A stretch of 64,000 bases of DNA, taken from Vulcanimicrobiota bacterium. GTDB lineage: Bacteria; Vulcanimicrobiota; Vulcanimicrobiia; Vulcanimicrobiales; Vulcanimicrobiaceae. This document shows, piece by piece, positions 10,517-27,222 of the stretch. The translations under genes and the position numbers were made by a program. The notes beneath the pieces were generated by a model. That model saw only the letters and a list, made by a program, of their open reading frames with translations. It ran no database searches and was not told the origin of the DNA. The stretch's first letter is position 1; each line of letters begins with the position of its first letter. Location of the stretch: assembly GCA_963757945.1 (NCBI GenBank), contig CAVWTN010000002.1, positions 1,606,974 to 1,670,973 of the forward strand, in the 5' to 3' direction.

Positions 10517-11089
10517 TCAGACGCGAGTCCGTCGTTCCCCTGGGAGCTCTTCTCGGACATGCCGTTCTTGCGCCGGTGTTTCGATTGTTTTGGGGCGCGC
10601 CTCGCGGACGGCGGTGATGGCTGCATCCGGGTTCATTCCAAGCTCCACCAGCAGCCGGGCCGCGATCATGCCGGTTCGGCCGAGGCCCGCTCGGCAGTGA
10701 ATCACGACGAGACGGCCGGCGCGTAGGCATTCGCGCGCTTCGCGGCCGACGGTTCGCCACGCTTGTTCGAATGCCGGGCCGGGCACGCCGGCATCTGGGA
10801 TCGGGAGGTGCCGCCACGGAAGGCCGCTAGTCGCAAGCACACTTGCGAAATCAGGAACGCCGAGAGCCTTGAATTCGTGCGATTCGTTGAGCGTGATCAG
10901 CAGGCACGGATCCACGCGGCGTATCACCTCGAGGTCGGCGTCGAGGTCGCGCCGCCAGCGAATGCCGTTGAAGGATAGATCGTCGGAACGCCCCGGGCAC
11001 AGCGTCATGCCGATTCGCCCGCCCGTTCCCGGCACGTCGACCATGTCGACCCTCAGCGGATGCGTAGCGCTCGTCCTAAACTCGCTCAC
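10517..11089 (-). CDS. Dual-specificity (Cys-based) protein phosphatase family protein.
   Basis: The CX5R P-loop is VVIHCRAGLGRTGMIAARLL. The size (about 190 aa) fits the DSP fold. Confidence 0.75.
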   Translation of the reverse strand: MSEFRTSATHPLRVDMVDVPGTGGRIGMTLCPGRSDDLSFNGIRWRRDLDADLEVIRRVDPCLLITLNESHEFKALGVPDFASVLATSGLPWRHLPIPDAGVPGPAFEQAWRTVGREARECLRAGRLVVIHCRAGLGRTGMIAARLLVELGMNPDAAITAVREARPKTIETPAQERHVREELPGERRTRV

Positions 11090-12041: not shown

Positions 12042-12502
12042 GCGGCTTCCGATGTTGAGAGCTTGCTCTCGAGCGCGCACAGCGTCTCGTCGCCGGAGAC
12101 GATGCGGAAGATCTTCGGATACTGTTCCTCGGCCGTCCAGTAGAAGAAGCCAAGAAGATTTCCGAGGACCGACGCGTCGAGATGCTCCGCCCGATAGTCG
12201 ATCTCAAGGACCAGGCCGTCCGGCCTGACCGCGAACTTCGCGACCATCATCGCCGTGTTCGCGCGCATCGTCGCTTCGAAGAGCTGCGCCCGCAGGCCGG
12301 CTTCCTCGGGGACGTTGCAGACGACGGTGGAGATGTGCAGCCAGTCCGCGGTCAACGCCGCGACGATGAACCATTGCCGCGTACGGCCGTGGTAGGAGAG
12401 GCCGCGGCGCACGGGATCGAGGCGAAACGATGCGAGGCCGGCTTCCTTCATCAGGGTCTTGAGCCGCGCCGAGGCTTCGGGTTGTGGATTCTTGTCTTCC
12501 AT
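12038..12502 (-). CDS. YbjN-like (putative sensory transduction regulator / T3SS-chaperone-like fold) protein.
   Basis: A 154-aa acidic protein. FRLDPVRRGLSYHGRTRQWFIVAAL...LVLEIDYRAEHLDASVLGNLLGFFYW resembles the YbjN family. It is the first gene of a three-gene minus-strand operon. Confidence 0.5.
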   Translation of the reverse strand: MEDKNPQPEASARLKTLMKEAGLASFRLDPVRRGLSYHGRTRQWFIVAALTADWLHISTVVCNVPEEAGLRAQLFEATMRANTAMMVAKFAVRPDGLVLEIDYRAEHLDASVLGNLLGFFYWTAEEQYPKIFRIVSGDETLCALESKLSTSEAA

Positions 12503-12566
12503 ACCGATAGTGTAGGTGAATGTGCACCAAGGCGTCAGTCGGTCAGTTGCCGGCCCGGGTCAGAAT

Positions 12567-13565
12567 ATGACCCACCCCCCTCGCGCCGCGCACGGGGGAA
12601 AAGTCGAGCGCTTCGTCTCGGTCATTCGCATCCTCGAGCAGGATCGCAAGATCACGAAGAAGCGCATCTACGAGTTGTTTGGCGTCAAGTCCGAGAGTTC
12701 GTTCAAGCGCATCAAAGCGCAGCTTGCGTACGCCGGGCTGCCGATCAGCTACGATCCGGACGACAAACACTTTCACGTTCCGCCGGGCGCTTCGATCGCG
12801 CGCTATGGCATCGATCCGCGCACGCGCGTGCAGCTCGCGCAAGTTCGCGCCGCGATCTCGGCGCTCGGCGGCCCGATCTCCGAAGCGCTCGACGACGTGC
12901 TGGAAGCCCTCGACGCGCGCATCGCGATCGGCGATTGGGACGGGACGGCCGTCGTCTCCTCGCGCCATCCGCAGCCGCGCGGCGGGCCGGCCTTTTTCGA
13001 AACGCTCGACCGCGCGCTTTCGGCGCTACGCGAGCATCGCTGGCTTTCGTTCACGTATAGCCGCAGCGACGGTTCCCACGCCGATCGCCGCACCGTCGCG
13101 CCGTACGCCGTGCACACGCACAACGGGCGCTATTATCTCTGGGGCTTGACGGAAGGCGAGCTGGAGCCGAAGCTCTACGTGCTCGATAGCGTGAGCGATG
13201 CGACGATCGAGGACGACACGTTCGTTCCCGATCCGGGGCTCAGTCTCGACGATGCCTTGCGCTACAGCTTCGGCACGATGATCGGCGACGGCAGCCCGCA
13301 GCGCGTCGTCGTGCGGATCGAGCCGGCGGCGGCCGCCTTCGTGCGCTGCCGCCAATGGCCGGCGGAAGTCGAAACCGCCGACGAGCCCGACGGCTCCGTG
13401 CGCCTGACGTTCGAACTCACGCGCTTCGCGGAGATCGTCGGCTGGGTCCTGAGCTTCTGCGGCGCCGCCACGATCGTCAGCCCGCCGGAGGCGCGAGCCG
13501 AGCTGCACGCGGCCGCCGTGCGCGCTGCTGAGGCGTCGGCGGACGCGATCGAGGCCCTCGGCTAG
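12567..13565 (+). CDS. WYL-domain transcriptional regulator (HTH plus WYL plus C-terminal WCX-like domain). The start is chosen at ATG 12567; the listed ORF begins at 12516.
   Basis: N-terminal wHTH is VERFVSVIRILEQDRKITKKRIYELFGVKSESSFKRIKAQL. The WYL core is HADRRTVAPYAVHTHNGRYYLWGL. It is divergent from the ARH operon, with an intergenic gap of only about 65 bp. Confidence 0.8.
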   Translation: MTHPPRAAHGGKVERFVSVIRILEQDRKITKKRIYELFGVKSESSFKRIKAQLAYAGLPISYDPDDKHFHVPPGASIARYGIDPRTRVQLAQVRAAISALGGPISEALDDVLEALDARIAIGDWDGTAVVSSRHPQPRGGPAFFETLDRALSALREHRWLSFTYSRSDGSHADRRTVAPYAVHTHNGRYYLWGLTEGELEPKLYVLDSVSDATIEDDTFVPDPGLSLDDALRYSFGTMIGDGSPQRVVVRIEPAAAAFVRCRQWPAEVETADEPDGSVRLTFELTRFAEIVGWVLSFCGAATIVSPPEARAELHAAAVRAAEASADAIEALG

Positions 13566-13876
13566 CGCACCCTTCGACGGGCTCAGGGTGACGGCGGGGG
13601 GGTGGCGCGAAGGTTGCGCCCGCCGCACTCGTCACCCCGATCTAGCCGAGCTGTGATCTCGCCGCATTCGTCACCCTGATATCTTGGCGCCGCCGGGTGT
13701 TCCCGGTGATCCGGGTCGAAGACCCGGGCCTCCGCGTCGGTGACCGCGATGCGGCGGCGGAGGCTGGCGAGTTGTTCGGGCGTGACGTGCGAGGGCGTGG
13801 GCTGGACGCGCTTCAACGCGACGCTCGTGAGGTCTGCCTCGACCGGCACGCAGCGAAGCCCGGCGATGTCATCTCG

Positions 13877-13945
13877 CCGGCTGAGTATCCAGACGTTGCC
13901 GTCGACGTCGCGCTCGTTCTCGGGAACCTTTGGCGAACGCATTGA
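13877..13945 (+). pseudogene. Short 3' remnant of a Uma2-family endonuclease paralog.
   Basis: ...PAEYPDVAVDVALVLGN* versus the C-terminus of the intact gene ...PVEFPDVAVDVALVLGES* at 16066-16125. Nucleotide identity is about 85% over about 50 bp. The upstream sequence has no Uma2 similarity. Confidence 0.3.
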
Positions 13946-13967: not shown

Positions 13968-14312
13968 TCAATCGAGCTGGAGAAGAGTGGCGAGCTTCTT
14001 TCGCACGCGGCGCAGGGTAGCCGGGGAGATCTCCTCGGCGAAATCGGCGAAGCGGGCGCGCCAATCGAGGCTCTTGACCTGATCTGCAAGCACGACGCCG
14101 GCGATCGAGCTGCCCGCAGCGAGCGGAACCTCGAACGGATATCTCTTGCGCTGCGAGGTCACGGGCACGCCGACGGCAAGCGAGGTCTTCGCATTGTAGG
14201 CACGCGGCGACAGTACCAAGAACGGACCGCGCCCAGCCTGTTCGCGCCCGCGCTGAGGATCGAGCGAAAGCCAAACGATATGGCCCGTATCCGGAACGTA
14301 CGGTTCTACCAA
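13968..14312 (-). CDS. mazF: MazF/PemK-family type II toxin (endoribonuclease).
   Basis: PDTGHIVWLSLDPQRGREQAGRGPFLVLSPRAYN...GVVLADQVKSLDWRAR matches the PemK/MazF pattern. It overlaps the upstream antitoxin gene by 7 nt. Confidence 0.8.
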   Translation of the reverse strand: MVEPYVPDTGHIVWLSLDPQRGREQAGRGPFLVLSPRAYNAKTSLAVGVPVTSQRKRYPFEVPLAAGSSIAGVVLADQVKSLDWRARFADFAEEISPATLRRVRKKLATLLQLD

Positions 14313-14736: not shown

Positions 14737-15342
14737 CTACGCGGTGACGGTCGCGTGCGCGGGGATGCGCAGCTTCACTTCGCCGAAGACGATCTCGGGC
14801 GGATGCGCGAGCAGGCTTCCGAGGTTCTTGTCGGCCCACGCGCGCGCCCGTTCCCGCGCGGTTTTCGCGGACTCCTCATCCGCGAACACGAGCAGCCAGG
14901 AGAGGGCTCCGTGGCCGGCGTCGATCGCGCCGTGCGCGGCGTACCCGGGCAGCTCGGCGATCGTCGGGATGTAGCCTTCGACGATCCGCTTCTTCGCTTC
15001 CTCAACCTCGCCCGGCTTCGTCGCAAGGTGCCACACGAATCCGTGGCCGGAGTGTACGTGCTCCTTGACGTCGCGGAACGCGACCGGACCTTCGCTGATC
15101 TTGGGGTGGCCGAGCTCCGTCGCTGCTTGATTCTCACGGACCCAACCCGCGGCGAGTTCGGCCCCCAGCTCGTCGTCGAAGACGCTTGCGGTGACCACGC
15201 CGTCCGGTCCGGCGTCGATCAGCGTCCACGAGACGAAGCCCCAAGCGTGGCTGATCGGGTGCATGAAGCGCTCGCGCGTATGACGGACGATCGCATCGAT
15301 CTGCCCGGGCTCGGTCTTGTAGTGTCGGACAACTCCAAACAT
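14737..15342 (-). CDS. Hypothetical protein, 201 aa, possibly with two small alpha+beta (ABM/Dabb-like) halves.
   Basis: An uninterrupted ORF with protein-like composition and high GC3. No firm family assignment. Confidence 0.45.
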   Translation of the reverse strand: MFGVVRHYKTEPGQIDAIVRHTRERFMHPISHAWGFVSWTLIDAGPDGVVTASVFDDELGAELAAGWVRENQAATELGHPKISEGPVAFRDVKEHVHSGHGFVWHLATKPGEVEEAKKRIVEGYIPTIAELPGYAAHGAIDAGHGALSWLLVFADEESAKTARERARAWADKNLGSLLAHPPEIVFGEVKLRIPAHATVTA

Positions 15343-15558
15343 CCAAAACCGCCTTTCACGCCGTGCTCACGCGGCGCTTCACGAACTTTTCGCGACCTCG
15401 CGAACCCGCCCCCGTCGGGTGGCGCCGACGCGCAGGCGATCGCCCCTCGCCGCCCTTCGGCAAGTATTTCTCGGCAAGTGGCTAGCATGACGCGATGGGC
15501 GGGTGGAGAGGCATTGACCTGCGATGCAATTCTGCCCCAAGCGAGGTATGATCCGGAC

Positions 15559-16125
15559 ATGTCTACCGCGGCCGAGCGGCTCCACCGGATTACGACGGAC
15601 ATCTACGAGCGCATGGCCGCCGGCGGCTTGTTGCCCGAGGGTGGCATCGAGCTCATCGATGGCCTCGTTGTCGAGATGAGCCCCAAAGGTGACCGGCACG
15701 CCTATGCGGTCACCCGCCTGAACGAGCTACTCGTCGACCAGCGCCGGGGGCGCTACGCCGTGTATGCCGACAGCCTGAGCCTGCGCCTCGGGCCGCGCGA
15801 CGAGCCGGAGCCCGATATCGCCCTGGCTCGGACGACCCGAAGCTATGCGCGCGAACGGCCGCGTCCCGACGAGATCGCGCTGATCGTGGAAGTCGCTGAT
15901 TCGTCCCGCGCGTTCGATCTCGGTGAGAAGCGCGCCAAGTACGCCGCCGCCGGGATTCCGGAATACTGGGTCGTCGACTTGCAACGAAACGCGGTCAACG
16001 TCTTTCGGAGTCCGCGCGGCGACCGCTACGTCGATGCGCGCGTGGCGAAATCCGGTGAGGCAATCGCTCCAGTGGAGTTTCCCGACGTCGCCGTCGACGT
16101 CGCGCTCGTGCTCGGGGAATCGTAG
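15559..16125 (+). CDS. Uma2-family (DUF820, PD-(D/E)XK) endonuclease.
   Basis: MSTAAERLHRITTDIYERMAAGGLLPEGGIELIDGLVVEMSPKGDRH ... PDIALIVEVADSSRAFDLGEKRAKYAAAGIPEYWVVD. The listed ORF 14755..16125 carries a long antisense N-terminal extension, which is rejected. Confidence 0.8.
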   Translation: MSTAAERLHRITTDIYERMAAGGLLPEGGIELIDGLVVEMSPKGDRHAYAVTRLNELLVDQRRGRYAVYADSLSLRLGPRDEPEPDIALARTTRSYARERPRPDEIALIVEVADSSRAFDLGEKRAKYAAAGIPEYWVVDLQRNAVNVFRSPRGDRYVDARVAKSGEAIAPVEFPDVAVDVALVLGES

Positions 16126-16159
16126 CGGCCGTTCGGTCGCATGGTCGCGTAACGCGCGC

Positions 16160-17056
16160 TTACTTCAGCGCTTCGATGGTCCAGCCGCTCACGTTGACGT
16201 ACGGCACGTTCTCGAGCGAGATCGAGCGGGTCTCGACGAGCGAGAGCCGTTCGAGCGCTGCGTGACGCACGCGGCCGTCGACGCTGACCGCGACCGTCAA
16301 TTGCTGGCGCGCGGTGCCGCCGCGGAAAGAGTCGCCGGCCGGCGCGGCATCGCCGCCGCCACTCTGAGGGCCGGCGCCTTCAGGCGGGCCTCCGCCGGGG
16401 AAACCGCCGCCTCCGGGAAAGCCCCCGCCGAAGCCGCCTCTGGTGTGAAAGCCGCCTTGCCGCGATCCGTCGCCGAGCGACGAGCCGCCGGCAGGCTGCT
16501 GCGCTTGAACGAGAACCTGCCCTGCACCGCGCAGGTCGTAATCTGCGCCGGATGCGTTGGTCACGGTCAGCGGGACGATGACTTCCGTTGCCGCGCGGCG
16601 CTCGCCGGGAACCGTCAGCGTTGCGCTCCAGCCGTCATGCGTCGCCGGCTCGTTTGCGAAAAGCTCCGTCAGCCGATTGATTCCTTCGATTGCGTCGCGC
16701 AAGGCGGCGTTTTGGTTCGCGCTTCGATCGTTCTTCGGAATCTCCAAACGGCCGTCGGGCGCCACGTTGAGCACCGTCAGATCGGGCGGGAGTCCGCCGT
16801 AGGAGCCGTCGAGCGCAAGCGTCGACGGCGACTTGCGCCGCAACGTGACATCGGCGACCGAGGTCTGCGGTCCGGCAAGACTCTGCGTCGTGCGCGTGAT
16901 GCGATAGTGCAGCGTCGCGCCGGTCGGCGGGATCACGGACGGCGCGTCGGCGAACGCCGGAGCGGCCCACGCCGCGGCGCAGAGCGCCGCGGCAAATGCC
17001 GCCGGCGCAGGCGAAAACGAAGCCGGCAGAAGCGCCGGCACGTGCTTGTGTCGCAT
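16160..17056 (-). CDS. Secreted hypothetical protein with a Gly-rich (GGF/GGFP) segment.
   Basis: Signal peptide MRHKHVPALLPASFSPAPAAFAAALCAAAWAAPAFA. There is a globular N-terminal region followed by a GGFHTRGGFGGGFPGGGGFPGGGPPEG low-complexity tract. The upstream part of the listed 16160..19381 ORF is antisense to the TIR-STAND gene and is rejected. Confidence 0.5.
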   Translation of the reverse strand: MRHKHVPALLPASFSPAPAAFAAALCAAAWAAPAFADAPSVIPPTGATLHYRITRTTQSLAGPQTSVADVTLRRKSPSTLALDGSYGGLPPDLTVLNVAPDGRLEIPKNDRSANQNAALRDAIEGINRLTELFANEPATHDGWSATLTVPGERRAATEVIVPLTVTNASGADYDLRGAGQVLVQAQQPAGGSSLGDGSRQGGFHTRGGFGGGFPGGGGFPGGGPPEGAGPQSGGGDAAPAGDSFRGGTARQQLTVAVSVDGRVRHAALERLSLVETRSISLENVPYVNVSGWTIEALK

Positions 17057-17128
17057 AGCGGCACTGTAAGCGCTTAGTCTTACAAGCGGCTTGGAAAGGC
17101 CGGCTCCTGCGCCTGGTATGATGGTGCC

Positions 17129-19789
17129 GTGATCTTCATCAGCCATTCCAGCCTCAATAATGAAAAAGCGATCGCCGTGCGCGATTGGCTCGTTGAGCAA
17201 GGCTGGGGGGCGTCGCGGATCTATCTCGATCTTCAGAACATCCACGCGGGCGAGCGCTGGCGCGAAGCGCTCAACGACATCGGCTCGAACTGCGAGGCGG
17301 TCATCGCGTGCCTTTCCGATGACTGGTTGCGTTCGCCCGAATGCTTGCGCGAATTCAATCAGGCCGAGGCGACCAGCAAGCCGATCTTCCCCGTCGTCGT
17401 CGCGCCGATCACCGAGCGCATCCCGCGCTTCATCACGGACCTGCAGTTCGCCGACATCAGCGACCCGGCGTTGCAGGCCGAGGGCTTCGAAAGCCTCCGG
17501 CGCGGACTCTTGGCGGCGCGCATCGTTCCGGATGACCCTTCGGCCGCTTCCGACGGAAAGTCCGCGCAGGCGCGCGCTGCCGCCCGTTTCGCCACGAACT
17601 TGCCCAAACAAGTCTCGAGCTTCGTCGGGCGCGAGAGCGTCGTCGCGGAAATCGAAACGCTGTTGCAAGACGCGCGCCTGGTCACGCTGTTCGGCGCGGG
17701 CGGCCTCGGCAAGACGCGCTGCGCTCAGGAGTTGGGCGCGCGCTTGCTGGAGCAGTTCGACGGCGGCGTGTGGTTCGTCGATCTCGCGCCCTTGCGCGAT
17801 CCGGCGCTCGTCGCAAGCGAGATCGCGACCGCGTGCGGCGTTCGCGAAGCGCCGGGAAAATCGATGCTCGACGCGCTGACCGCGCACCTGGAACGCAAAC
17901 GCACGTTGCTGCTGCTCGACAATTGCGAACACGTCGTCGCGGAGGCCGCGAAGACGGCGGCCGCGGTCCTCGCGGCCTCGGCAAACGTCAAGATCGTCGC
18001 GACGAGCCGCGAGCTCCTGAAGGTCGTGGGCGAGGCCGTCTATCAGATGCCGACGCTCGCCGTGCCGGAACGCAGCAAGCACCTCGCGCCGGAGAGCGCG
18101 CTGACGTACGGCGCCGTCGAGCTCTTCCACGATCGCGCGCGCGCCGCGAACCGCGCGTTTCGGCTGACCGCGGACAATACGCCGGTCGTCGCCGAGATCT
18201 GCGCCCGGCTCGACGGCATTCCGCTTGCGATCGAACTCGCCGCCGCGCGGATGCGGATGCTCTCGCCGAACCAACTCGCAAAGCAGCTCGACGAACGCTT
18301 TCGCGTGCTCACGGGCGGCGACCGCACGGCACTGCCGCGCCAGCAGACGATGCGGGCGCTCATCGATTGGAGCTACGATCTGCTCTCCGCGCAAGAGCAG
18401 CGGCTCTTCCGCGACATCTCGGTCTTCGCGGGCAGCTTCTCGTTTCAAACCGCCTGCGTAGTTTGCGCGAACGCCGAGACGAGCGAACTCGACGTGCTCG
18501 ACGTGCTCTCGTCGCTCGTCGACAAGTCGCTCGCGGTCGCGGAACCTTCGGATTCGGACGCGCGATGTCGCGTGCTCGAATCGATCCGCGAATACGGCCG
18601 CGAGAAATCGATCGCAGCCGGTGAGGCCGCTGATGTTTCCGGGCGCCACGCGGCGGCCTACGCGGAACTCGCCGAACGGCTCGAACGCGAGTACGAAGAG
18701 TTGCCTTACGAGCTGTGGCTCGAGCAGACCGCGAGCGAAGTCGAGAACGTGCTTGCCGCGCTCGCATGGTCGTTCGGCGGTTCGGGCGACGTGCTGGTCG
18801 GGCAGCGGCTCGCCGCGACGCTGCGCCGCGTGCTCGTCGCGTTCAGAGCCGCAGAAGCGCGCCGCTGGGTCGCGACGGCGCTCGAAGCGGTCACGCCTGC
18901 CACGCCGCAGCCGGTGATCGGACGACTCGAACTCGCCGAAGCGACGCTCGCCTCGACGATGAGCCAGGTGCGTCCGGCCCTCGCCGCGGCGCAACGCGCG
19001 CTCGCGATCTTCGAGGGGCTGCGGGACGCGCGCGGGGTCGCCAACGCCCAGCGTTGGGCGGGGCGTTCCCTCATGCTCGTCGGCGAGATCGACGAAGGCG
19101 CGGCGTTGCTCGAGCGATCCCTCGCGACGCTTCGGGGCCTGGGCTTTCGGCGCGCCGGCGGCATCTTGCGCGACCTCGGCACGGCGCGCGCGCTGAAGAC
19201 CGACGTCGCCGGGGCCCGCGTGCTCTTCGCGCAGGCGCTCGCGAGCTTCAAGGAGAGCGCCGACGACTACAACATCGCGGTGACGGCTGGGACGCTCGCC
19301 GACGCGGAGTTCCGCTGCGGCGATGCGCGGGCGGCGCTCGTCGCTGGCTTGGAAGGGCTCGAAGCGGCGCGCGCGCGGCATCTCGAGTCGAGCGTGCTCA
19401 TGTGGCTGTTGTGCAATCTGGCCGCGTTCAGCCTCGAGCTAGGGCAGTACGACGACGTGCGCGCGTACGCGCACGAACTGCTCGCGCTGCGGCTCGATGC
19501 GCCCAGCGACATCGACGTCGCGTTCGCGTTGCAGCATCTCGCGGGCGTCGCCACGCTGCGCGAGCCGCCGGAGCCCGGGAGCCTGCGGCTCGCGGCGACG
19601 CTGCTCGGCTTCGTCGATGCGCGGCTCGCGGCGCTCGGCGTCGATCGCGAATACACGGAGCAACATCTCTACGATAAGATCCAGGCTGTCTTACGCAGCG
19701 CACCGGACGAGAACGCGCACGGCGAACCCGCCAGCGCGAACGGCGCGCTCAACGAAGAGGCCGCGGTCGCGCTCGCGCTGACGATCTGA
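17129..19789 (+). CDS. TIR-NB-ARC-TPR protein (STAND NTPase with N-terminal TIR domain).
   Basis: TIR: MIFISHSSLNNEKAIAVRDWL...AVIACLSDDWLRSPECLREF. P-loop: VTLFGAGGLGKTRCAQELG. Walker B: LLLLDNCEHVV. Further NB-ARC motifs: IVATSRELL and GIPLAIELAA. The C-terminal about 350 aa hold TPR-like helical repeats. GTG start. Confidence 0.85.
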   Translation: MIFISHSSLNNEKAIAVRDWLVEQGWGASRIYLDLQNIHAGERWREALNDIGSNCEAVIACLSDDWLRSPECLREFNQAEATSKPIFPVVVAPITERIPRFITDLQFADISDPALQAEGFESLRRGLLAARIVPDDPSAASDGKSAQARAAARFATNLPKQVSSFVGRESVVAEIETLLQDARLVTLFGAGGLGKTRCAQELGARLLEQFDGGVWFVDLAPLRDPALVASEIATACGVREAPGKSMLDALTAHLERKRTLLLLDNCEHVVAEAAKTAAAVLAASANVKIVATSRELLKVVGEAVYQMPTLAVPERSKHLAPESALTYGAVELFHDRARAANRAFRLTADNTPVVAEICARLDGIPLAIELAAARMRMLSPNQLAKQLDERFRVLTGGDRTALPRQQTMRALIDWSYDLLSAQEQRLFRDISVFAGSFSFQTACVVCANAETSELDVLDVLSSLVDKSLAVAEPSDSDARCRVLESIREYGREKSIAAGEAADVSGRHAAAYAELAERLEREYEELPYELWLEQTASEVENVLAALAWSFGGSGDVLVGQRLAATLRRVLVAFRAAEARRWVATALEAVTPATPQPVIGRLELAEATLASTMSQVRPALAAAQRALAIFEGLRDARGVANAQRWAGRSLMLVGEIDEGAALLERSLATLRGLGFRRAGGILRDLGTARALKTDVAGARVLFAQALASFKESADDYNIAVTAGTLADAEFRCGDARAALVAGLEGLEAARARHLESSVLMWLLCNLAAFSLELGQYDDVRAYAHELLALRLDAPSDIDVAFALQHLAGVATLREPPEPGSLRLAATLLGFVDARLAALGVDREYTEQHLYDKIQAVLRSAPDENAHGEPASANGALNEEAAVALALTI

Positions 19790-19845
19790 CGCTTGAGACC
19801 GAGATGAACCGGGTCGCGCTCGTGCTGACGATGTAACGCGCGAGG

Positions 19846-21402
19846 TTAGTGGACCGGGATCGTATACGTCGTCGAGCGCAGCAGCGGCCCGTCCGTCTCC
19901 GTCACCGTGACGGTGCAGTTCGTACCCGAGCTGCCGCTGATCAGGTCGAATTCGACGTATGGTCCCACGGCGTGGAACAGCGCGTGCGTCGACGTTCCCG
20001 AGCTGACGGGCGGGCTCTCCTGCGGACCGCCCGGATCTTTGTAGATCGGGGGCGGCGGCGGAACGTCGCCGTTCTCGTCGGGGCCGTTGTTGACCAGACA
20101 CGAACCGGCCGACGTATCGACCGAGAAACCGCCGCAGATCGCGGGCGCGATGCACGTGCCCGGGACCGCCGTATAGGTCGCGTCGTCCGCGACGAGCAGT
20201 TCCACCGCGTGATGCGCCGGCACCGACGTCGCGGACGGAGCGGGCGACGCCGCAGGGTTGGCGTTGCTGTTGCAGTTGGTGCCGCTCGCCGCGGCGACGC
20301 AGAGCTGCAAATCGGCGACGTTCCCGACGATCACGTTTTGAATCACCGGCACGGTGAATGACGGCGTGACGCACGTCGTCGTTCCGCTCGCCGCGCAGAG
20401 CTGTTCGGACGACGGCCCGTCGAGACCGATGAAGACGCGGTCCGGCGCCGGAGCCCCGACCGTGAACGTGACGGTCGGCGCACCGAACAAGACCGATGCC
20501 GAATCGACGGTGCCGAGCTGGCAATAGAACGACGGAATGCCGAGGATGACGGCGCCGCTCAGCGCCGGAGCGAGCACGTGCCCGACATATGCGGGGAAGC
20601 ACGCCGAGGAGAACATCGTGCCGCCGCCGCCGGTGTTCGCGTAATTCACCACGAGGCTCGACGGCAGCGTCGGCGCGTTCGAGGTGAGCACCGTGTTCGA
20701 TCCGGGGACGATCGGCAAGCCGACTTCGCTCGTCGAATCCTCGGGGATGATGCTGATCTCGGTCTTCGTACGCGGCGGCAGCGTGATGCTCGCAACGTCG
20801 GAGGTGAACGTGATCGAATGCCCGGATGCCGTGACGTCGCCGATCTTCAGCGACGAGACGGTCGCCGGTACGGGCTTCAGTTGAAAGAAGCTCACGCCGA
20901 AGAGCGTTCCGTCGACGCTGCATGGGACGTGCGCGGAGAAACCATCGACGCGCAGCGTGATCGGAAAGGGGAACGGGTTGTACAGCGGAATCGCAAACGT
21001 CGCCGGGCACGTGCGAGGATGATTCCATTGCGCGTGCAGCGACCCGCCCGAAGCAACGGAACCTTGAGGCTGACGGACGCCCAGCAGCAGCTTCGTGCCG
21101 GCCGGCACGTTCGTCGCGTGCACGGTCAGGTTCGCGCTGTACCCGCCCGCCAGCGGGATCGCAAAGGAGCTCGGCCTCGCGGAGAGCGCGGCGCTGACCG
21201 TGGCCTCGCCGCTCTCCGGGCCGGCGGCCGGGTCGACCTGCGGCTGTTGCGCCGGCACGGCGGCCGGCTGCTGCACCGGAGCGGCCGGCTGCGCGGGCAG
21301 CATGGCGCTGGGCTGCTGCATCGAGCTCTGACCGCTACAAGCCCCGAGTGCGAGCGCAATCGACATCAGCGCCGATAGTCCGAGCAAGCGAATAGCGGAC
21401 AT
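19846..21402 (-). CDS. Secreted lipoprotein with a Pro/Gln-rich linker and a Thr/Ser/Gly-rich beta domain.
   Basis: MSAIRLLGLSALMSIALALGACSG signal plus lipobox. The linker is QPAAPVQQPAAVPAQQPQVD. Confidence 0.55.
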   Translation of the reverse strand: MSAIRLLGLSALMSIALALGACSGQSSMQQPSAMLPAQPAAPVQQPAAVPAQQPQVDPAAGPESGEATVSAALSARPSSFAIPLAGGYSANLTVHATNVPAGTKLLLGVRQPQGSVASGGSLHAQWNHPRTCPATFAIPLYNPFPFPITLRVDGFSAHVPCSVDGTLFGVSFFQLKPVPATVSSLKIGDVTASGHSITFTSDVASITLPPRTKTEISIIPEDSTSEVGLPIVPGSNTVLTSNAPTLPSSLVVNYANTGGGGTMFSSACFPAYVGHVLAPALSGAVILGIPSFYCQLGTVDSASVLFGAPTVTFTVGAPAPDRVFIGLDGPSSEQLCAASGTTTCVTPSFTVPVIQNVIVGNVADLQLCVAAASGTNCNSNANPAASPAPSATSVPAHHAVELLVADDATYTAVPGTCIAPAICGGFSVDTSAGSCLVNNGPDENGDVPPPPPIYKDPGGPQESPPVSSGTSTHALFHAVGPYVEFDLISGSSGTNCTVTVTETDGPLLRSTTYTIPVH

Positions 21403-21625
21403 GGAGAGCCTCCAGCCGTTAGGTGTTCGAGCGCGATTCCTGAGGAGCGCCTAAATCGCCTCCGCGAGCCGAGTAGGCCTTTTGGCCCGCGCCCTTCTCT
21501 CGAAGGCTGGGCAAGTCTACGGCCGCCCGAGGATCGTCGCCGCCGAACGCGGTGCTCCTGAGAGCGTCTAACGGCGTGGTATGCTTTGCGCCTTACGTCT
21601 GTCCGCATGCTTGCAGAGGATGTGA

Positions 21626-23248
21626 TTGGTGAAGTTGGCGTCTGGAATTCCACTGCTCATCGGCGTCAGCGGCCATCGGCACTTGGGGGGCGGCGAGAAC
21701 GTCGCCGAGGTCCGCGCGCGCGTCGAGCGGTTCTTCGAGATGCTGCGGCGGCAATATCCGAACACGGAGCTGGTGCTCTACAGCGGCCTCGCGCGCGGAG
21801 CCGATCAGCTCGCTGCCGAGGTCGCGCTCGCGCGCGGGATCGCGCTCGTGGCCGTGCTTCCGATGCCGCGGGAACTGTACGAGGAAGAGTTTCCCGGCCC
21901 CGAATTGCCCCGCTTTCGCGAGATCCTCGCGCAGGCCGAGCGAGTCGTCGAACTCCCGTTGCTCTCGGGCACGACGCCCGAGGACATTCGCTCCGATCCC
22001 GGCAGAGCGGGCCTAGCGGCGCAAGAGCAATACGCGGCGCTGAGCGACTTCCTGGCCGTTCGCACGCAATTGCTGCTCGCGCTCTGGAACGGCGTTCAGA
22101 GCACGGCGCTCGGCGGCACCGCGTGGACGATCCGAGCGAAGCTCAGCGGAAGGCTGCGCGCCGATGCCGAGCGTTTGGATCCGATCGACTTGGGGCTCGT
22201 GTACGTAGTTCCCGCCGCGGGCGAGGCGCCGTCGACCGCGCCGTTACCGCGCGAAGGTTTCGTCGCCGGAGATACGATCGAACCGTACCTCGCAGCGCTG
22301 CGCGACATCGACGTCTACAACGCGCATCTCGAGGATTCGGCGCGGCGGCCGGACGCATTGGCGGAGGCTCGCGACACCGCCGACGCGCTCGCGGTTCGCT
22401 ATCACCGGATGCTCGCGCGTACGCGGAACATCCTCGCGCTCTTGGTGTTGACGCTGGTGCTGATGTTCGGCATCTATTCGGAACTCGCGCGCACGCCTCT
22501 CGTATTGTTGATCTATCTCGCGACGCTGGTCGTCGGCGCAGGCATTTGGACCTGGCAACGCCGCGCTCATATCGAAAAGCGCTTCTTCGAGTATCGGGCG
22601 CTGGCCGAAGCGCTGCGCATCCAGCACGTGTGGTTATCGAGCGGCCTGCCGCATTCCGTCGAAGACTCGTATCTGCGCAAGCACGCGGGCGAACTGCACT
22701 GGATCCGCTTGGTGCTGCGTGGGTACGCGACCGATAGCGACATCGTCGCCGCGCTCGCCGTGCGCCGCGCGGCCCGGCCGGTTCCGGGGCGGCCCGAGGA
22801 TTATCCCGCGGCGCGTCAGTGGATCGTGGAACAATCCGCCTACTTTCAAAGCGGCGCCGTGCGCAGAACGCGCGCCGTCAAACGCTTGCGCTCGTTGGCG
22901 CGCATTCTCTACGGCGCGGGCGTCGTAGCGGCGGCCGGAACGGCCGTTGCCGGCTATCTGGAAGCGGCGCCCGCCATCGAGCATGCCTTGGTGTTCGCGA
23001 TGGCCGTCGCGCCGGCGTCTGCCGGCATCATCCTTTCATGGATCGAGCAGACGGGTATCGAAGACGAGGCCCGTCAAACGACACGGATGGCACGACTGTT
23101 CGAAAGCGCCCGGCTCGATTGGGAAGCGCATCCGACGCTGCGTACCGCGCTGATGAGCGAACTCGGCAAAGAAGCCGTCTACGAAAACGCCGATTGGCTC
23201 CTGATGCACCGCTCCCGCCCACTGGAAGCCCCGCTGAGCCCGGGGTGA
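21626..23248 (+). CDS. SLOG (LOG/DprA-like Rossmann) domain protein fused to a C-terminal multi-TM (SLATT/DUF4231-like) region.
   Basis: N-terminus: LLIGVSGHRHLGG...ELVLYSGLARGADQLAAEVALARGIALVAVLPMP (compare DprA SGLArGIDaaAH and the LOG GGGxGLMG...GGxVxGViP pattern). Predicted TM helices are NILALLVLTLVLMFGIY, PLVLLIYLATLVVGAGIWTW, ARILYGAGVVAAAGTAVAGYL and ALVFAMAVAPASAGIILSWI. Confidence 0.55.
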   Translation: MVKLASGIPLLIGVSGHRHLGGGENVAEVRARVERFFEMLRRQYPNTELVLYSGLARGADQLAAEVALARGIALVAVLPMPRELYEEEFPGPELPRFREILAQAERVVELPLLSGTTPEDIRSDPGRAGLAAQEQYAALSDFLAVRTQLLLALWNGVQSTALGGTAWTIRAKLSGRLRADAERLDPIDLGLVYVVPAAGEAPSTAPLPREGFVAGDTIEPYLAALRDIDVYNAHLEDSARRPDALAEARDTADALAVRYHRMLARTRNILALLVLTLVLMFGIYSELARTPLVLLIYLATLVVGAGIWTWQRRAHIEKRFFEYRALAEALRIQHVWLSSGLPHSVEDSYLRKHAGELHWIRLVLRGYATDSDIVAALAVRRAARPVPGRPEDYPAARQWIVEQSAYFQSGAVRRTRAVKRLRSLARILYGAGVVAAAGTAVAGYLEAAPAIEHALVFAMAVAPASAGIILSWIEQTGIEDEARQTTRMARLFESARLDWEAHPTLRTALMSELGKEAVYENADWLLMHRSRPLEAPLSPG

Positions 23249-23254
23249 GGAGCC

Positions 23255-23416
23255 CTACTCGGGCGCCTTCAGCACTCTTTCCAGGTCGGCGAGGTACGCT
23301 TGGACCTCCGGGTCGTCGGGGTCCGCAAGCGCCTTGACGGCCATGTACTGCTTTGCAAGCAACGCCTTGTATCCGGGCTTATCGCGCGTGTCCGGGTTCG
23401 GCTCTTTATCGTCCAT
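23255..23416 (-). CDS. Small hypothetical protein (53 aa). It is below the ORF-track cutoff.
   Basis: MDDKEPNPDTRDKPGYKALLAKQYMAVKALADPDDPEVQAYLADLERVLKAPE. A GAGG-like SD lies about 8 nt upstream. Confidence 0.25.
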   Translation of the reverse strand: MDDKEPNPDTRDKPGYKALLAKQYMAVKALADPDDPEVQAYLADLERVLKAPE

Positions 23417-23790
23417 CAGCTTGTGCCTCGTTTCAGACCGCGATGCCGGGCTCGGCTGCGATCGTCACTCTCATGATGCCGCGTCGCGACGGCAGTCACA
23501 CCGGTATGCCGCGCTGAAGGCGATCGAGCGGGGAACGGCCTTGCAGGTGAGGCAATCTTGCGGTATGAGCGAACAGCCCGAGCGAAAGATTGACGGCGCG
23601 CGCTCGTGCTTCAACAAGAACGGGTCGCCGAAGGCCGCGTTCGTAACGAAGAAGCTTGCGGAGCGAGCGATTCCGCGAACGAGCGTGCGCTTGGCGGCGT
23701 ATCCATGCGCTCAGCACGGCTGGCATCTCGGACACCGTTAGCGGTGTCGCACCGGGCATCGCGCAGCGCCCTCCGCCATGAGCCATCAAA

Positions 23791-24867
23791 GTGAAGGAGC
23801 AGGTGAGCGGGAAGGCGCACGTTGCCGCCGCCCTTCGGTGGCAGAGCGACGCGCACGTGGAGCCGGCGGCGGTTCTCGCGGCAGCGATCGGGATGGCGGG
23901 ACCGGTCGCGGCGGGCGTCGCGACGGGACACTTGCCGCTCGGCCTGACGGCGGCGGTCGGGGGGCTCGCCGTCGGCGGCGCGAGCGTAGGGCCGAGCGCA
24001 AATGCGCAGGCACGCGATGTGGGCGCGTCGCTCGCGCCGATAGGCTTGGCGGCGGTCGTGGCGGCCGCGATCGCCGGGCGCGGGCCTGTCATGGATGCGT
24101 TGCTCGTGCTCACCGCATGCACGGCGGCGACGGCCGGCGGGTACAGCCGGCCGATGGCCGCTGCTGCAACGCGCTTCATTCTGTTCTCGATCGTGGCCAT
24201 CAACGTTGCCGGCGCCGCTCCGGACCGCGTCGGGCTGCCGATCCTCATCGTGGCGGGCGCGCTGTGGGCCGCGTTCGCGAACCTCGCGCTCGGCGGTCTG
24301 GCGCGGGCTCTCGGCCGCGCCGGGCCTGCGGTAGGCGATGCTTCGACGGCGACCGCTGCCCAGAAATTCGCGCGGTGGAGGAGGACGCTGACCGGCCTAG
24401 CGGGCTGGCAATACCCGCTGAGGCTCGGGATCTGCTTGACGATCGCCGGCGCGGTGCGCTCGCTTTGGCCGGAGCATCACCTGTATTGGATCGCGCTCAC
24501 CGCCGCGCTCCTCTGCGAGCGGAGAGTCGAGGCGCTTCCGATCAAGACGACGCAACGCGCATTCGGCACGGCGATCGGCGTGATGGTCGCGTACGCGTTC
24601 GTTGCGTTCAACCTCTCCGCATGGAGCTTGGCCGCGACGATCGGCGTCCTCGCGGGTCTGCGCTCGCTGCTGCGCGCGAGGAACTATCTCGCGTACGCGA
24701 TTGCGATGACTCCGCTGATCATCTTGATCATGGACGCGGGGCGGCCGCTCGGCATCGACGTGCTGATCGACCGTCTGACGGCAACCCTCATCGGCGCGGG
24801 GTTGGTGCTCCTCGTCAACGCCGCGGTTGGCCCAGCTTTGCGCAATGAGCACAGTGCGCGTCGATGA
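23791..24867 (+). CDS. Integral membrane protein, FUSC/YccS-like (aromatic acid exporter family).
   Basis: About 10 hydrophobic helices rich in A/G/L. The minus-strand ORF 23496..24248 is antisense and rejected. Confidence 0.5.
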   Translation: MKEQVSGKAHVAAALRWQSDAHVEPAAVLAAAIGMAGPVAAGVATGHLPLGLTAAVGGLAVGGASVGPSANAQARDVGASLAPIGLAAVVAAAIAGRGPVMDALLVLTACTAATAGGYSRPMAAAATRFILFSIVAINVAGAAPDRVGLPILIVAGALWAAFANLALGGLARALGRAGPAVGDASTATAAQKFARWRRTLTGLAGWQYPLRLGICLTIAGAVRSLWPEHHLYWIALTAALLCERRVEALPIKTTQRAFGTAIGVMVAYAFVAFNLSAWSLAATIGVLAGLRSLLRARNYLAYAIAMTPLIILIMDAGRPLGIDVLIDRLTATLIGAGLVLLVNAAVGPALRNEHSARR

Positions 24868-25392: not shown

Positions 25393-25926
25393 ATGCCGCA
25401 AAGTCGCATCGTTCAATTTTTCGAGGGAACCGGCCGCGACGGCTCCGGCCGCCTCCTCGCGGACGTCCTGAAGTTCGATGACGCTCGTCTCGAGCAAGTG
25501 CACGACTATATCCAGTGGCTGTTCCCGCTGCCGGAACCGAGCGGAGCGAATCCGCTCGCTCCGACTCTGAGCGGCGAGGACGTCGCGGCCTTTCTCGCGC
25601 GACCGGACCTGCGGGCGGTGCTGCGTGAGGGCTTCCTCCGCATGCTGGCGTTCTACGGATTTGCTTACGATGGAGGCGCGATCGCGCCGGGTGCGTTTTT
25701 CTGGAAGCGCAAGACCGTTTGGCTGAGTAGCTGGAACCACAACCACTTGCGGCTGACGCGCATCCTGCGATCGACCCGGCTCCTCGGCCTCGAGGACGAG
25801 AGTCGAGCGTTGTTCCAATGCCTGACGACCGTTTACGAGAGCGCCGAGCACCGCGGGCACGATCACATATCGCCGGAGACCTACCGCTACTGGCAAGCCG
25901 CAGCCCAAGGCCTCGCGCTGCCATAG
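25393..25926 (+). CDS. OGFr-N-like (opioid growth factor receptor conserved region) domain protein.
   Basis: HDYIQWLFPLPEPSGANPLAPTL and the surrounding pattern are typical of bacterial OGFr_N homologs. Confidence 0.55.
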   Translation: MPQSRIVQFFEGTGRDGSGRLLADVLKFDDARLEQVHDYIQWLFPLPEPSGANPLAPTLSGEDVAAFLARPDLRAVLREGFLRMLAFYGFAYDGGAIAPGAFFWKRKTVWLSSWNHNHLRLTRILRSTRLLGLEDESRALFQCLTTVYESAEHRGHDHISPETYRYWQAAAQGLALP

Positions 25927-25971: not shown

Positions 25972-27222
25972 ATGAGAAGGCCGGTCTCCAATCGGGATCG
26001 CTTCTGTAACGAAGCCCCGGACGCACTCGAGGTGCAAGGAAGGAGACCGACCTTCATGACCAAGCATACCAAAGCCCAAGGAAAAGCCAAGTCCCCGACC
26101 CCGAACTCGCCGACGATGAGAACAGGAGTCTCCTACCAAGCAAGCAAGGCCGACGCTGCCGGGTCTTCCGGGCGCCTGACGATCGGGCTGGATTTAGGCG
26201 ATCGTTCCACGGCGTACTGCATGCTCGACGCTGACGGACAGATCTTGGCCGAGGGAAAGTTCAAGACGGTGCGGGCGGCGATCGATCAACAGTTCGGCCG
26301 CCTTGCGCCGGCACGCATTGCGTTGGAAGCCGGCACGCACTCCGGATGGATCAGCCGTTTGATCGAATCGCACGGTCATGACGTGATCGTCGCCAACCCC
26401 CGCGAGGTGCGCAAGATCTACCAGAACGACCGCAAGAACGACCGCAACGACGCGCGGATTCTGGCACGCTTAGCCCGTGTCGATCCGCAGTTGCTCGCGC
26501 CCATTCACCACCGTGATGCGAAGATGCAGGCCGACCTTGCGACCATCCGAACTCGGGACACGCTTGTGGCGGCGCGGACCAAGTGCGTCAACGCGATGCG
26601 CGGTCTGGTGAAGTCGCTAGGCGGGCGACTGCCCAAGTGCAGCACCGAAAGCTTTTGCAAGCGTGTCGGCGCAGCTATCCCGGCGGATCTGGAAACGGCT
26701 TTGCGCCCCCTGATCGTAACCATCCAGACCCTCAACGAGCAGATCCGCGGCTGTGACAAGCAGATCGAGACGCTCGCGGAGCAAACCTATCCTCAGACGG
26801 CACTGCTGCGCCAGGTCGGCAGCGTCGGGGCGCTTACGTCCACAGCGTTTATCCTCACGATCGCCGACGAAAAACGCTTCACGAAGAGCCGCGAGGTCGG
26901 TCCCTTTTTGGGATTGGTTCCCCGACAAGACGATTCCGGCGAGCGCAGCTCACAACTACGCATCACCAAGACCGGTAACGCCTACCTGCGACGACTCTTG
27001 GTTGGAAGCGCCCAGTACATCTTGGGGCCTTTCGGACCCGACACCGACCTCCGTCGCTACGGTGAACGGCTGATGCAGCGCGGCGGCAAGAACGCCAAGA
27101 AGCGCGCTGTCGTCGCGGTGGCGCGCAAACTTGCCGTGCTCTTGCACCGGCTGTGGGTCACCGGCGAAGCATACGAGCCCCTGCGCAACTCCAAGCATCC
27201 GGAGCCGATGGAAGCGGCGTAA
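25972..27222 (+). mobile_element. IS110-family insertion sequence. The ends are not defined, as IS110 elements lack classical IRs.
   Basis: Contains the IS110 transposase gene. Confidence 0.6.
26056..27222 (+). CDS. IS110-family transposase (DEDD).
   Basis: LTIGLDLGDRSTAYCMLD, N-terminal RuvC-like DEDD start. The C-terminal region reads ...RLLVGSAQYILGPFGPDTDLRRYGERLMQRGGKNAKKRAVVAVARKLAVLLHRLW. An AGGAG SD lies upstream of ATG 26056. Confidence 0.85.
   Translation: MTKHTKAQGKAKSPTPNSPTMRTGVSYQASKADAAGSSGRLTIGLDLGDRSTAYCMLDADGQILAEGKFKTVRAAIDQQFGRLAPARIALEAGTHSGWISRLIESHGHDVIVANPREVRKIYQNDRKNDRNDARILARLARVDPQLLAPIHHRDAKMQADLATIRTRDTLVAARTKCVNAMRGLVKSLGGRLPKCSTESFCKRVGAAIPADLETALRPLIVTIQTLNEQIRGCDKQIETLAEQTYPQTALLRQVGSVGALTSTAFILTIADEKRFTKSREVGPFLGLVPRQDDSGERSSQLRITKTGNAYLRRLLVGSAQYILGPFGPDTDLRRYGERLMQRGGKNAKKRAVVAVARKLAVLLHRLWVTGEAYEPLRNSKHPEPMEAA

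Follow-up and report, generated by a model that had tools for sequence, protein, structure and literature searches.

The closest described relatives of the locus discussed here are the Thoeris antiviral signalling systems, in which a messenger made by a TIR protein activates a separate effector. In type I Thoeris, which pairs the TIR protein ThsB with the SIR2-SLOG protein ThsA, 3'cADPR is sensed by the SLOG domain of ThsA, and in type VII canonical cADPR activates a SLATT effector, ThsH (Yirmiya et al. 2025, bioRxiv 10.64898/2025.12.03.692087). In type II, a TM-Macro effector responds to His-ADPR. The configuration 'TIR + SLOG and 4TM' has already been listed as putative and unvalidated (Yirmiya et al. 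2025, Tables S1 and S2), and neither of two 'SLOG and 4TM' operons tried in E. coli conferred protection (Table S2). That survey discarded TIRs on Avs/STAND proteins, since they were treated as NAD+-depleting effectors and not as signal makers. Because of that listing, the novelty of our locus is lower than the initial annotation assumed: the pairing of TIR with SLOG-4TM is not categorically new. What is new is the variant, with a STAND module attached to the TIR.

We analysed a stretch of 64,000 nucleotides of Vulcanimicrobiota DNA (the window), in which such a pair belongs to a three-gene cassette of 6.1 kb: a TIR-STAND-TPR gene (17129..19789), a lipoprotein-like gene (19846..21402) and a SLOG-4TM gene (21626..23248). 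The lipoprotein-like gene is on the − strand; all other genes and domains given below are on the + strand. Both ORFs on which the initial annotation was built are present at its coordinates, with a codon-position GC bias typical of real genes (GC3 of 0.85 for TIR-STAND and 0.80 for SLOG-4TM; GC of the sequence is 67%). The pairing recurs in many bacteria and may be regarded as a putative branch of Thoeris.

The first gene encodes a protein of 886 aa, a predicted sensor and signal synthase, whose exact sequence is present in a public collection. It has Pfam matches to TIR_2, NB-ARC, AAA_22 and TPR_12 and aligns over its full length with orthologues from loci L001, L003 and L005. The TIR domain occupies aa 1-134 (17129..17530; TIR_2 1.8e-16, aa 2-122). 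Its residue E75 (codon 17351-17353) is invariant across 19 TIRs linked to the SLOG-4TM effector family (alignment A3). The family profile places E75 opposite the Glu in 'WTEYE' of AbTIR, which we take to be the catalytic E208, and opposite its counterpart in the TIR domains of Cat1 and TLR. On these alignments the window TIR keeps the catalytic glutamate, on which the initial annotation's reading depended. Next comes a STAND NTPase of the NB-ARC type (aa 161-417, 17609..18379), identified by its profile matches and Walker motifs. The Pfam matches to NB-ARC (1.1e-8; 35 bits, above the cut-off of 23.5) and AAA_22 (2.9e-10) span aa 175-417, nSTAND1 also matches (7.9e-5), and Walker A (GAGGLGKT, aa 189-196, 17693-17716) and Walker B (LLLLDNCEH, aa 260-268) are invariant in alignment A4. 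The C-terminal helical/TPR region (about aa 500-886, 18626..19786) is the presumed ligand-sensing arm. There the TPR_12 match (aa 637-708, 4.8e-5) lies under its Pfam cut-off, and PDB profile matches are to the TPR proteins LGN/Pins (profile positions 618-755). For the TIR-NB-ARC part, the best PDB sequence match is Roq1.

The SLOG-4TM gene, a predicted signal-gated membrane effector, encodes 540 aa from TTG, or 539 aa from GTG at 21629. A model, fold search and hydropathy bear out the SLOG fold and the TM helices attributed to it. Its N-terminal part (aa 1-215, 21626..22270) belongs to the YpsA clade of the SLOG superfamily, having the Rossmannoid SLOG fold and carrying the GxD/E signature; the invariant residues are those of GxxGHR (G13, H17), GLAxGAD (G58, D60), WxG (W154, G156) and GGT (163-165). 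As in Thoeris generally, the effector neighbouring the TIR gene carries a putative small-molecule sensor domain. Two TM hairpins follow, aa 268-288 with 291-311 (22427..22558; supported by Kyte-Doolittle windows of at least 1.6 and by long modelled helices) and aa 427-445 with 453-473 (22904..23044; hydropathy, with a SLATT_1-like region at aa 400-501), with a helical domain, roughly 115 aa long, in the middle. The four TM helices of the initial annotation therefore stand as two hairpins, but not as a single 2TM SLATT unit. The window protein matches SLATT_1 under the cut-offs of both Pfam (E 0.016, 15.7 bits, cut-off 26.3) and NCBIfam (0.0025), and among 13 family members DUF4231 is matched by nine (best 3.1e-7), SLATT_1 by five and SLATT_3 by three. 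In Pfam searches no SIR2 domain was found; the SLOG domain is followed by the four TM helices and helical bundles. The effector belongs to a very large family, with 12,422 clusters, and 3,836 when counted at E<=1e-30.

The three genes form a discrete cassette (17127..23249, limits common to Eremiobacterota relatives), since DNA homology to the Eremiobacterota genome of L001 begins at 17127 and ends at 23249 with unrelated flanks: in blastn of the window against L001, matches of 78-82% identity cover 17127-17572 and 17591-23249, and neither flank shows homology. The part of the window in which the cassette lies is accessory DNA that also holds IS elements, a MazF toxin, a WYL regulator and further STAND genes. 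A distance of 1.8 kb, occupied by a gene on the opposite strand, separates the TIR-STAND-TPR and SLOG-4TM genes; here they do not form an operon and are not co-transcribed. That intervening gene encodes 518 aa. Its product begins with the signal peptide MSAIRLLGLSALMSIALALGAC, which includes a lipobox-like cysteine, and matched no Pfam or NCBIfam family. The initial annotation called it convergent, which holds relative to the TIR gene; from the SLOG gene it is divergent. Only L001 and L003 have orthologues at this position (73-74% identity), and L005 has no such gene between the pair. We regard the gene as a probable lineage-specific passenger or accessory.

The pairing is kept in relatives whose effectors are 79%, 78% and 53% identical to that of the window, bearing out the co-localisation of homologues on which the initial annotation relied. 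The pair sits in three unrelated flanking contexts (the window, L001/L003, and L005). Given also that homology ends exactly at the cassette borders, the linkage survives relocation. More widely, among 80 species-level effector loci a partner gene lies within 5 kb in 47 (TIR in 41, DUF4062 in six); it is within 700 bp in 35 of these and on the same strand in 43. TIR/DUF4062 genes reach a density of 0.81 per 10 kb close to the effector versus 0.046 farther off, about a 17-fold difference. Distant effector homologues adjoin TIR proteins of other architectures; taken together, the partner TIRs comprise TIR only, TIR-TPR, TIR-WD40, TIR-PDZ-Sel1, CHASE2-TIR and TIR-STAND-TPR, so that the TIR head is common and the sensor varied. 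The start of a TIR-only partner of 224 aa overlaps the effector gene; such overlap of stop and start codons is seen often, across phyla. On a Caballeronia plasmid, a SLOG-DUF4231 gene adjoins a TIR gene. Hence TIR and effector genes are conserved together across genomes, as in Thoeris generally. In the remaining 33 of the 80 loci (about 40%), neither a TIR nor a DUF4062 gene occurs within 5 kb, and the genes directly adjacent are housekeeping ones such as those for FBPase and MazG. Some 'orphan' loci, for example L080, are cut contigs. L135, a TIR-STAND-TPR relative of 33% identity, has no SLOG-4TM gene within 8 kb.

Where did a TIR domain on such a scaffold come from? Class III cyclase-STAND-TPR signalling ATPases share the order output-NTPase-TPR and are 33-48% identical in the STAND-TPR part. 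The N-terminus of these scaffold relatives is normally a class III nucleotide cyclase and/or HTH domain, and only one of 80 carries a TIR. In L001/L003, the closest relatives, the TIR precedes a cyclase lacking one metal-binding Asp and the NRVAR Arg, and in the window protein the cyclase is entirely gone, with the TIR in its place. Since the scaffold normally bears a cyclase or HTH and the closest relatives combine TIR with a decayed cyclase, the TIR appears, on comparison of these sequences, to have taken over the place of a second-messenger synthase. The TIR head of L005 is 38-44% identical to small TIR partners of other phyla and only 25% to the window TIR, while the two STAND-TPR scaffolds are 42% identical; heads were thus exchanged, with scaffold and partner kept.

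How does the cassette compare with the systems named above? It resembles type I Thoeris in having a TIR signal maker and a SLOG-sensing effector, but it is without the SIR2 NADase, its output is a membrane module and its TIR is fused to STAND. Nor is there the generic small ThsB-like TIR in one operon with the effector; the TIR-NB-ARC-TPR protein is large and separated by the gap noted above. Like types VII and II, it would employ a membrane-spanning effector activated by a TIR-made messenger; its sensor, though, is SLOG rather than a SLATT cytoplasmic face or a Macro domain, and its effector has two TM hairpins split by the helical domain. To the listed 'TIR + SLOG and 4TM' it is likened by architecture, SLOG plus four TM helices adjoining a TIR gene. 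Both operons tried in E. coli have TIRs with the window TIR's invariant Glu and its S..C..E context, but these are ordinary ThsB-like proteins, whereas the window TIR sits on an NB-ARC-TPR scaffold outside a common operon. Their scores with the partner-TIR profile, 36-39 bits, do not exceed those of type III TIRs, and searches seeded with them reached no locus with a SLOG-4TM effector. The order of N-terminal TIR, STAND NTPase and C-terminal repeat sensor is that of Avs/AVAST-like and other bacterial TIR-STAND proteins and of plant TIR-NB-LRR (TNL) receptors. Unlike Avs/AVAST, our scaffold comes from the cyclase/HTH-NB-ARC-TPR family; PADLOC on both window proteins matched no Thoeris (ThsA, ThsB) or Avs model, its only hits being SAVED-TIR, mad8 and SpbK at E 8e-4 or weaker. 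In the plant pathway, as proposed here, a separate downstream protein reads the TIR-made small molecule, EDS1 with a helper NLR in plants and the SLOG-TM protein here. TRPM2-type channels, gated by ADP-ribose, also join a cytoplasmic SLOG-fold domain (MHR1/2) to a membrane permeation module. This is an analogy only, as the TM architecture is unrelated, TRPM2 is eukaryotic and it is a weak, non-significant Foldseek match (rank 47).

We consider it fairly probable that the cassette works as a two-component signalling system akin to Thoeris, in which a STAND-gated TIR signal is read by the SLOG-4TM membrane effector. A ligand, presumably a phage or stress cue, would bind the TPR arm, leading to ATP-dependent STAND oligomerisation. 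This would gather the N-terminal TIR domains, which could then convert NAD+ to an ADP-ribose-derived messenger. The messenger would bind the cytoplasmic YpsA-like SLOG domain of the adjacent four-TM protein, and the SLATT/DUF4231-like hairpins might open or assemble into a membrane-permeabilising structure, causing the infected cell to stop growing or die. The domains, the catalytic Glu and the linkage support the Thoeris variant of the initial annotation, and from them we infer the mechanism. Counting against it are the failure of the two 'SLOG and 4TM' operons to defend E. coli, the 33 unlinked loci, the lack of an operon in the window, the partnerless L135, the lack of a PADLOC model, the SLATT matches below Pfam cut-offs and the fact that bacterial TIR-STAND proteins have so far been described as depleting NAD+ rather than making signals.

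Some of these same points would suit two independent genes. TIR-STAND-TPR would then be a self-contained, Avs-like abortive-infection protein that depletes NAD+ once its STAND module oligomerises, and SLOG-4TM, with an unrelated role, a mere neighbour in an accessory island. TIR-STAND proteins are conventionally taken as NADase effectors, which is why the preprint left out Avs TIRs, and the separate transcription of the two genes, with a third lying between, L135 and the effector loci without TIR all agree. Independent genes would hardly be expected to stay together in three genomic contexts with homology stopping exactly at the cassette borders, or to show the 17-fold TIR enrichment with overlapping codons across phyla, and no Avs model was matched; we therefore judge their independence quite improbable. 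An enzymatic SLOG domain seems very improbable indeed: a LOG-like N-glycosidase or processing enzyme that makes, matures or degrades a nucleotide signal, with the TM part a mere anchor. Yet some SLOG clades consist of enzymes, LOG for one, the fold search also matched LOG structures, and the invariant GxxGHR, GxD and GGT motifs could be catalytic.

On another reading, a STAND/TPR-regulated TIR would produce an NAD-derived second messenger that gates a membrane channel in housekeeping or stress signalling, for example ion homeostasis, dormancy or development, rather than immunity. The usual outputs of the scaffold family, cyclase or HTH, are typical of signal transduction, partner TIRs bear CHASE2, PDZ, WD40 and TPR modules, the effector family is very large with many genes in conserved housekeeping neighbourhoods, and two tested operons gave no phage defence. 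Even so, we find such a role unlikely, as the window cassette lies in an accessory stretch, has moved between contexts, and recalls tested TIR-plus-SLOG or TIR-plus-SLATT modules that are anti-phage. Since the only tested representatives of this architecture failed in E. coli, native-like hosts or the STAND-controlled version may be needed.

Returning to Thoeris-like signalling, a more specific suggestion can be made, and we make it only tentatively. The cassette may be to bacteria what the TNL pathway is to plants, with an NLR-like TIR-NB-ARC-TPR receptor that emits an NAD-derived molecule instead of killing by NAD+ depletion, and a linked SLOG-gated four-TM protein that reads the molecule and permeabilises the membrane. 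Such a receptor would have arisen by TIR replacing a cyclase head, the TIR-cyclase-STAND intermediates of L001/L003 recording the swap. The apparent swap on a conserved scaffold is independent evolutionary evidence for these TIRs as messenger synthases. If correct, the cassette joins two usually separate lines of immunity, STAND/NLR-like receptors and Thoeris-type TIR signalling, and would be a prokaryotic case of TNL logic, in which a TIR-NLR makes the messenger and a separate membrane protein executes. It also offers a concrete entry point to a very large, uncharacterised effector family of thousands of clusters at 50% identity.

The cassette region has a G+C content of 66-69% and shadow ORFs are abundant in it; three ORFs carry a codon-position bias of the coding type. 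These are the TIR-STAND-TPR gene (17129-19789, plus strand, 886 aa), a lipoprotein-like gene (19846-21402, minus strand, 518 aa) and the SLOG-4TM gene (21626-23248, plus strand, 540 aa). Over most of its length, the long antisense ORF 16160-19381 is an Arg-rich shadow; the final ~300 codons belong to a distinct secreted protein upstream of the cassette. A scan of 16900-23500 gave no promoters or terminators beyond the shuffled expectation, and neither tRNA genes nor direct repeats were found at the cassette flanks.

In the TIR-STAND-TPR protein, Pfam places TIR_2 at aa 2-122 (1.8e-16), NB-ARC and AAA_22 at aa 175-417, and a sub-threshold TPR_12 match. Both Walker motifs, A (GAGGLGKT) and B (LLLLDNCEH), are intact, and they do not vary across orthologues. 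The single sequence had no matches in a sequence search of the PDB; such matches were obtained solely when a profile was used, of either the TIR domain or the entire TIR-STAND family. A profile of the 19 TIR domains genetically linked to the effector (SLOG-4TM) family matches many solved TIRs (Cat1, AbTIR, TLRs, Roq1 and SARM1). F3, L21 and E75 are the sole invariant positions in the alignment of these 19 domains, and in the profile E75 aligns with the Glu of 'WTEYE' in AbTIR, the catalytic E208. The catalytic glutamate expected by the initial annotation is therefore present in the window TIR.

Single-sequence matches of the SLOG-4TM protein are weak (YAcAr 2.6e-5, DprA 5.7e-4, SLATT_1 0.016; PADLOC ShosA 1.3e-5), and a sequence search of the PDB with the SLOG-domain profile gave no matches. 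Its AlphaFold2 model, computed from 13 homologues, is confident (pLDDT 80, pTM 0.76), and the top Foldseek matches of the model in the PDB are DprA, ShosA, the Moco carrier protein and LOG. Together with four hydrophobic helices, this bears out the SLOG fold and TM helices first proposed from sequence. The helices form two tight hairpins (aa 268-311 and aa 427-473), with a basic, conserved helical segment of ~115 aa between them and further conserved helices C-terminal to the second. Since there is no signal peptide, and by the positive-inside rule, we infer a cytoplasmic location for the C-terminus, the SLOG domain and the segment between the hairpins. The SLOG motifs GxxGHR, GLAxGAD, WxG and GGT are invariant across the family, and in the YpsA clade GxD/E is the signature substrate-binding motif (PMC6459960). 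DUF4231 matches occur in 9 of 13 family members, SLATT_1 in five and SLATT_3 in three. An internal duplication giving two hairpins was rejected (hhalign probability 0.7%). Two relatives, P0028 (836 aa) and P0099 (811 aa), have two tandem SLOG domains N-terminal to the 4TM module. Relatives of the C-terminal membrane/helical module only are encoded on two IMG/VR 'viral' contigs of 72 and 53 kb (L174, 1-750; L175, 6300-9098); the L175 protein has 932 aa, a weak DUF4231 match and an N-terminal 530 aa without family assignment.

Close homologues of the effector are P0005 (79% identity; locus L001, on the same contig as L011, in an Eremiobacterota MAG) and P0006 (78%; L003, a metagenome contig). 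Both loci share the gene order TIR-STAND, minus-strand gene of 514-522 aa, effector, in surroundings (UvrC-SurE-PHO4 ... pyridoxal-decarboxylase) that differ from those of the window. The pair recurs in a third genomic context in L005, where a divergent TIR-STAND-TPR gene lies 75 bp from effector P0008 (53%). DNA homology between the window and L001 (blastn) is confined to 17127-23249, and the coordinates of the initial annotation therefore match the limits of a mobile unit of three genes. No family assignment was found for the lipoprotein-like gene, which is kept in the closest relatives only; for this reason it was rejected as a conserved third component and is not treated as core. A megablast search of 17000-23400 against plasmids gave no match, and tblastn matches of the effector to plasmids are limited to the SLOG domain. 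One of these matches, on Caballeronia sp. SBC2 plasmid pSBC2-4 (L092, NZ_CP049320.1 20529-33061), is a cultured, annotated case of the wider TIR + SLOG-SLATT theme: the gene for a 577-aa SLOG-DUF4231 protein adjoins that for a 539-aa TIR protein, and the locus also encodes a WD40 protein and, upstream, a TPR protein annotated with a cyclase GO term.

The surroundings in the window are accessory in character. Upstream lie a TraD/TraG-like coupling protein (1456-3813), two IS3-type elements (4357-5615, 6959-8526) and three mutually overlapping minus-strand genes for a dual-specificity phosphatase of polymorphic-toxin type (10517-11089), an ADP-ribosylglycohydrolase (11076-12080, 2.3e-54) and a YbjN-like protein (12038-12502). 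This trio, divergent from a WYL-WCX regulator (12516-13565, plus strand), could be an ADP-ribosylation-reversal module. A MazF toxin (13968-14312) follows. A 91-nt direct repeat (75% identity), probably a paralogue remnant, has one copy (13834-13924) inside a 119-aa minus-strand gene (13583-13942) and the other (16026-16116) in the poorly coding 15342-16160. Downstream are a FUSC-like membrane protein (23791-24867), an OGFr_N protein (25393-25926) and an IS110 transposase (25972-27222); directly past the latter two, 5 kb from the cassette, is a second STAND-like ATPase (28573-30555, minus strand; nSTAND_NTPase5 below cut-off, weak PADLOC matches to PifA and NERD+UvrD). None of the window's accessory genes, the trio included, stands alongside the cassette in L001, L003 or L005, and they are therefore not counted as its parts.

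Linkage to TIR genes extends across the effector family, which has at least 532 relatives in GTDB species representatives. A collection of 1.84 billion representatives at 50% identity holds 12,422 clusters of the family at E<=1e-3, of which 3,836 pass E<=1e-30. ORFs called in the best 80 species loci were compared with two profiles, one for DUF4062 and an iterated one for TIR. A partner lies within 5 kb of the effector in 47 of the 80 (TIR 41, DUF4062 6), within 700 bp in 35 of the 47 and on the same strand in 43. Partner density is 0.81 per 10 kb inside 5 kb and 0.046 per 10 kb outside, and a partner is present in 33 of the 50 loci whose flanks each extend for at least 3 kb. Partner architectures comprise a 224-aa TIR, TIR-TPR, TIR-WD40, TPR-TIR, CHASE2-TIR, SIR2-TIR, TIR-STAND-TPR and DUF4062-NACHT/nSTAND1-TPR. 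Metagenome loci are concordant, with a lone TIR, a TIR-PDZ-Sel1 gene that runs into the start of the effector gene, or ThsB_TIR-TPR together with a small gene and the effector. Co-localisation of the two genes, on which the initial reading depended, thus holds in the close relatives, and TIR partners of other architectures extend it to most of the loci covered. The other 33 loci have no recurrent partner, their neighbours being housekeeping genes; in at least one of them, L080, the contig ends inside the likely TIR gene. No TIR-effector fusions (Rosetta-stone evidence) occur among the top 150 representatives, where the long proteins are tandem SLOG-SLOG-4TM.

Several variants deserve mention. 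Two same-strand three-gene arrays (L067 3695-11707, L081 2370-10123) encode DUF4062-nSTAND1-TPR (~1,250 aa), a ~700-aa protein of no Pfam family (35% identity between the loci) and SLOG-4TM, with DUF4062 in place of TIR as a putative nucleotide-processing head. In TIR-less Kapaibacterium-type loci (L026 2952-6882, L028 2545-6252, L046 11681-15369), downstream of SLOG-4TM lie a convergent gene of 370-385 aa without family assignment and one for a TPR-CHAT (caspase-like) protein. Gammaproteobacterial operons have small genes of 108-225 aa and no Pfam family between TIR-TPR and SLOG-4TM, in several lineage-specific families (L009 9324-10001; L059 2892-3497, L063 3733-4410; L061 3702-4094, L057 9602-9928; L086 3012-3404, L080 1880-2341, L069 9297-9686). 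They are candidates for a third component in this subtype.

A metagenome scan with the TIR-STAND alignment gave 592 relatives, nearly all of which match solely from residue ~130-156 on, in the STAND-TPR part (the scaffold), and their N-termini are a class III nucleotide cyclase, an XRE-type HTH, or both. The sole TIR-bearing scaffold relative in that scan, L135 (7956-12813), lacks any SLOG-4TM gene within 8 kb, and at its 3' end it overlaps with a convergent gene for a 706-aa GloVer-repeat ('choice-of-anchor') secreted protein. The TIR-STAND gene is followed in L005 by a gene of 949 aa that matches NHL repeats faintly and in the window by the lipoprotein gene; these secreted beta-rich neighbours may be a coincidence. 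In the closest TIR-STAND relatives, L001 (4995-8213) and L003 (4943-8161), a 186-aa class III cyclase-like insert, absent from the window and L005 proteins in the alignment, stands between TIR and NTPase. Compared with cyclase-STAND relatives, its first metal-binding Asp is Asn (LFTNIEGS vs LF[ST]DIEGST) and the Arg of NRVARL is Ala, both residues having catalytic roles in class III cyclases. We read the insert as decayed, judging by these substitutions, and the TIR-cyclase-STAND form looks like an intermediate stage in the evolutionary replacement of a cyclase head by TIR. Identity of the TIR head in L005 is 38-44% to small TIR partners of other phyla and 25% to the window head; the two scaffolds are 42% identical. 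Such comparisons suggest that TIR heads were grafted onto a STAND sensor, later replacing its second-messenger synthase head.

What might the cassette do? The two genes are as initially described, and the Thoeris-like interpretation survives every computational test proposed with it. The most likely mechanism, which we favour with some confidence, is that a STAND-gated TIR would signal to a SLOG-gated membrane effector. If instead the TIR-STAND protein were an autonomous Avs-like NADase, SLOG-4TM would be an unrelated neighbour of it. The head swap suggested above would fit messenger making better than pure NAD+ depletion. We consider such an NADase quite improbable. That the cassette is a signalling module outside immunity seems unlikely. 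An enzymatic role for the SLOG domain strikes us as very unlikely.

In the preprint of Yirmiya et al. (bioRxiv 10.64898/2025.12.03.692087), whose analysis leaves out TIRs carried by Avs proteins, Thoeris is divided into types I-XI, and 29 putative configurations are set out. In type I, SLOG senses 3'cADPR; type III combines a SLOG effector with several TIRs; type VII uses canonical cADPR and a SLATT effector. From comparative genomics, SLATT had been predicted before to be a membrane effector regulated by ADPr derivatives, and TIR-SLOG systems had been noted (PMC9503650, PMC7159879, with reference to Burroughs et al. 2015). Two operons, one of Streptomyces sp. GKU 895 and one of Ca. Nitrospira nitrosa COMA1, appear in Table S2 of the preprint as 'SLOG and 4TM', with 'No' as the result of defence tests in E. 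coli; their TIRs are labelled '4TM SLOG' in its Table S1. Searching with the Nitrospira nitrosa TIR gave short contigs only (best 64% identity), with no effector at the one locus inspected, and the Streptomyces TIR gave no matches. The window pair resembles this type by architecture and is therefore, in that sense, of an already predicted, still putative kind. Unlike the listed type, its TIR is STAND-controlled and its genes are not in an operon; these are the new elements of the pair.
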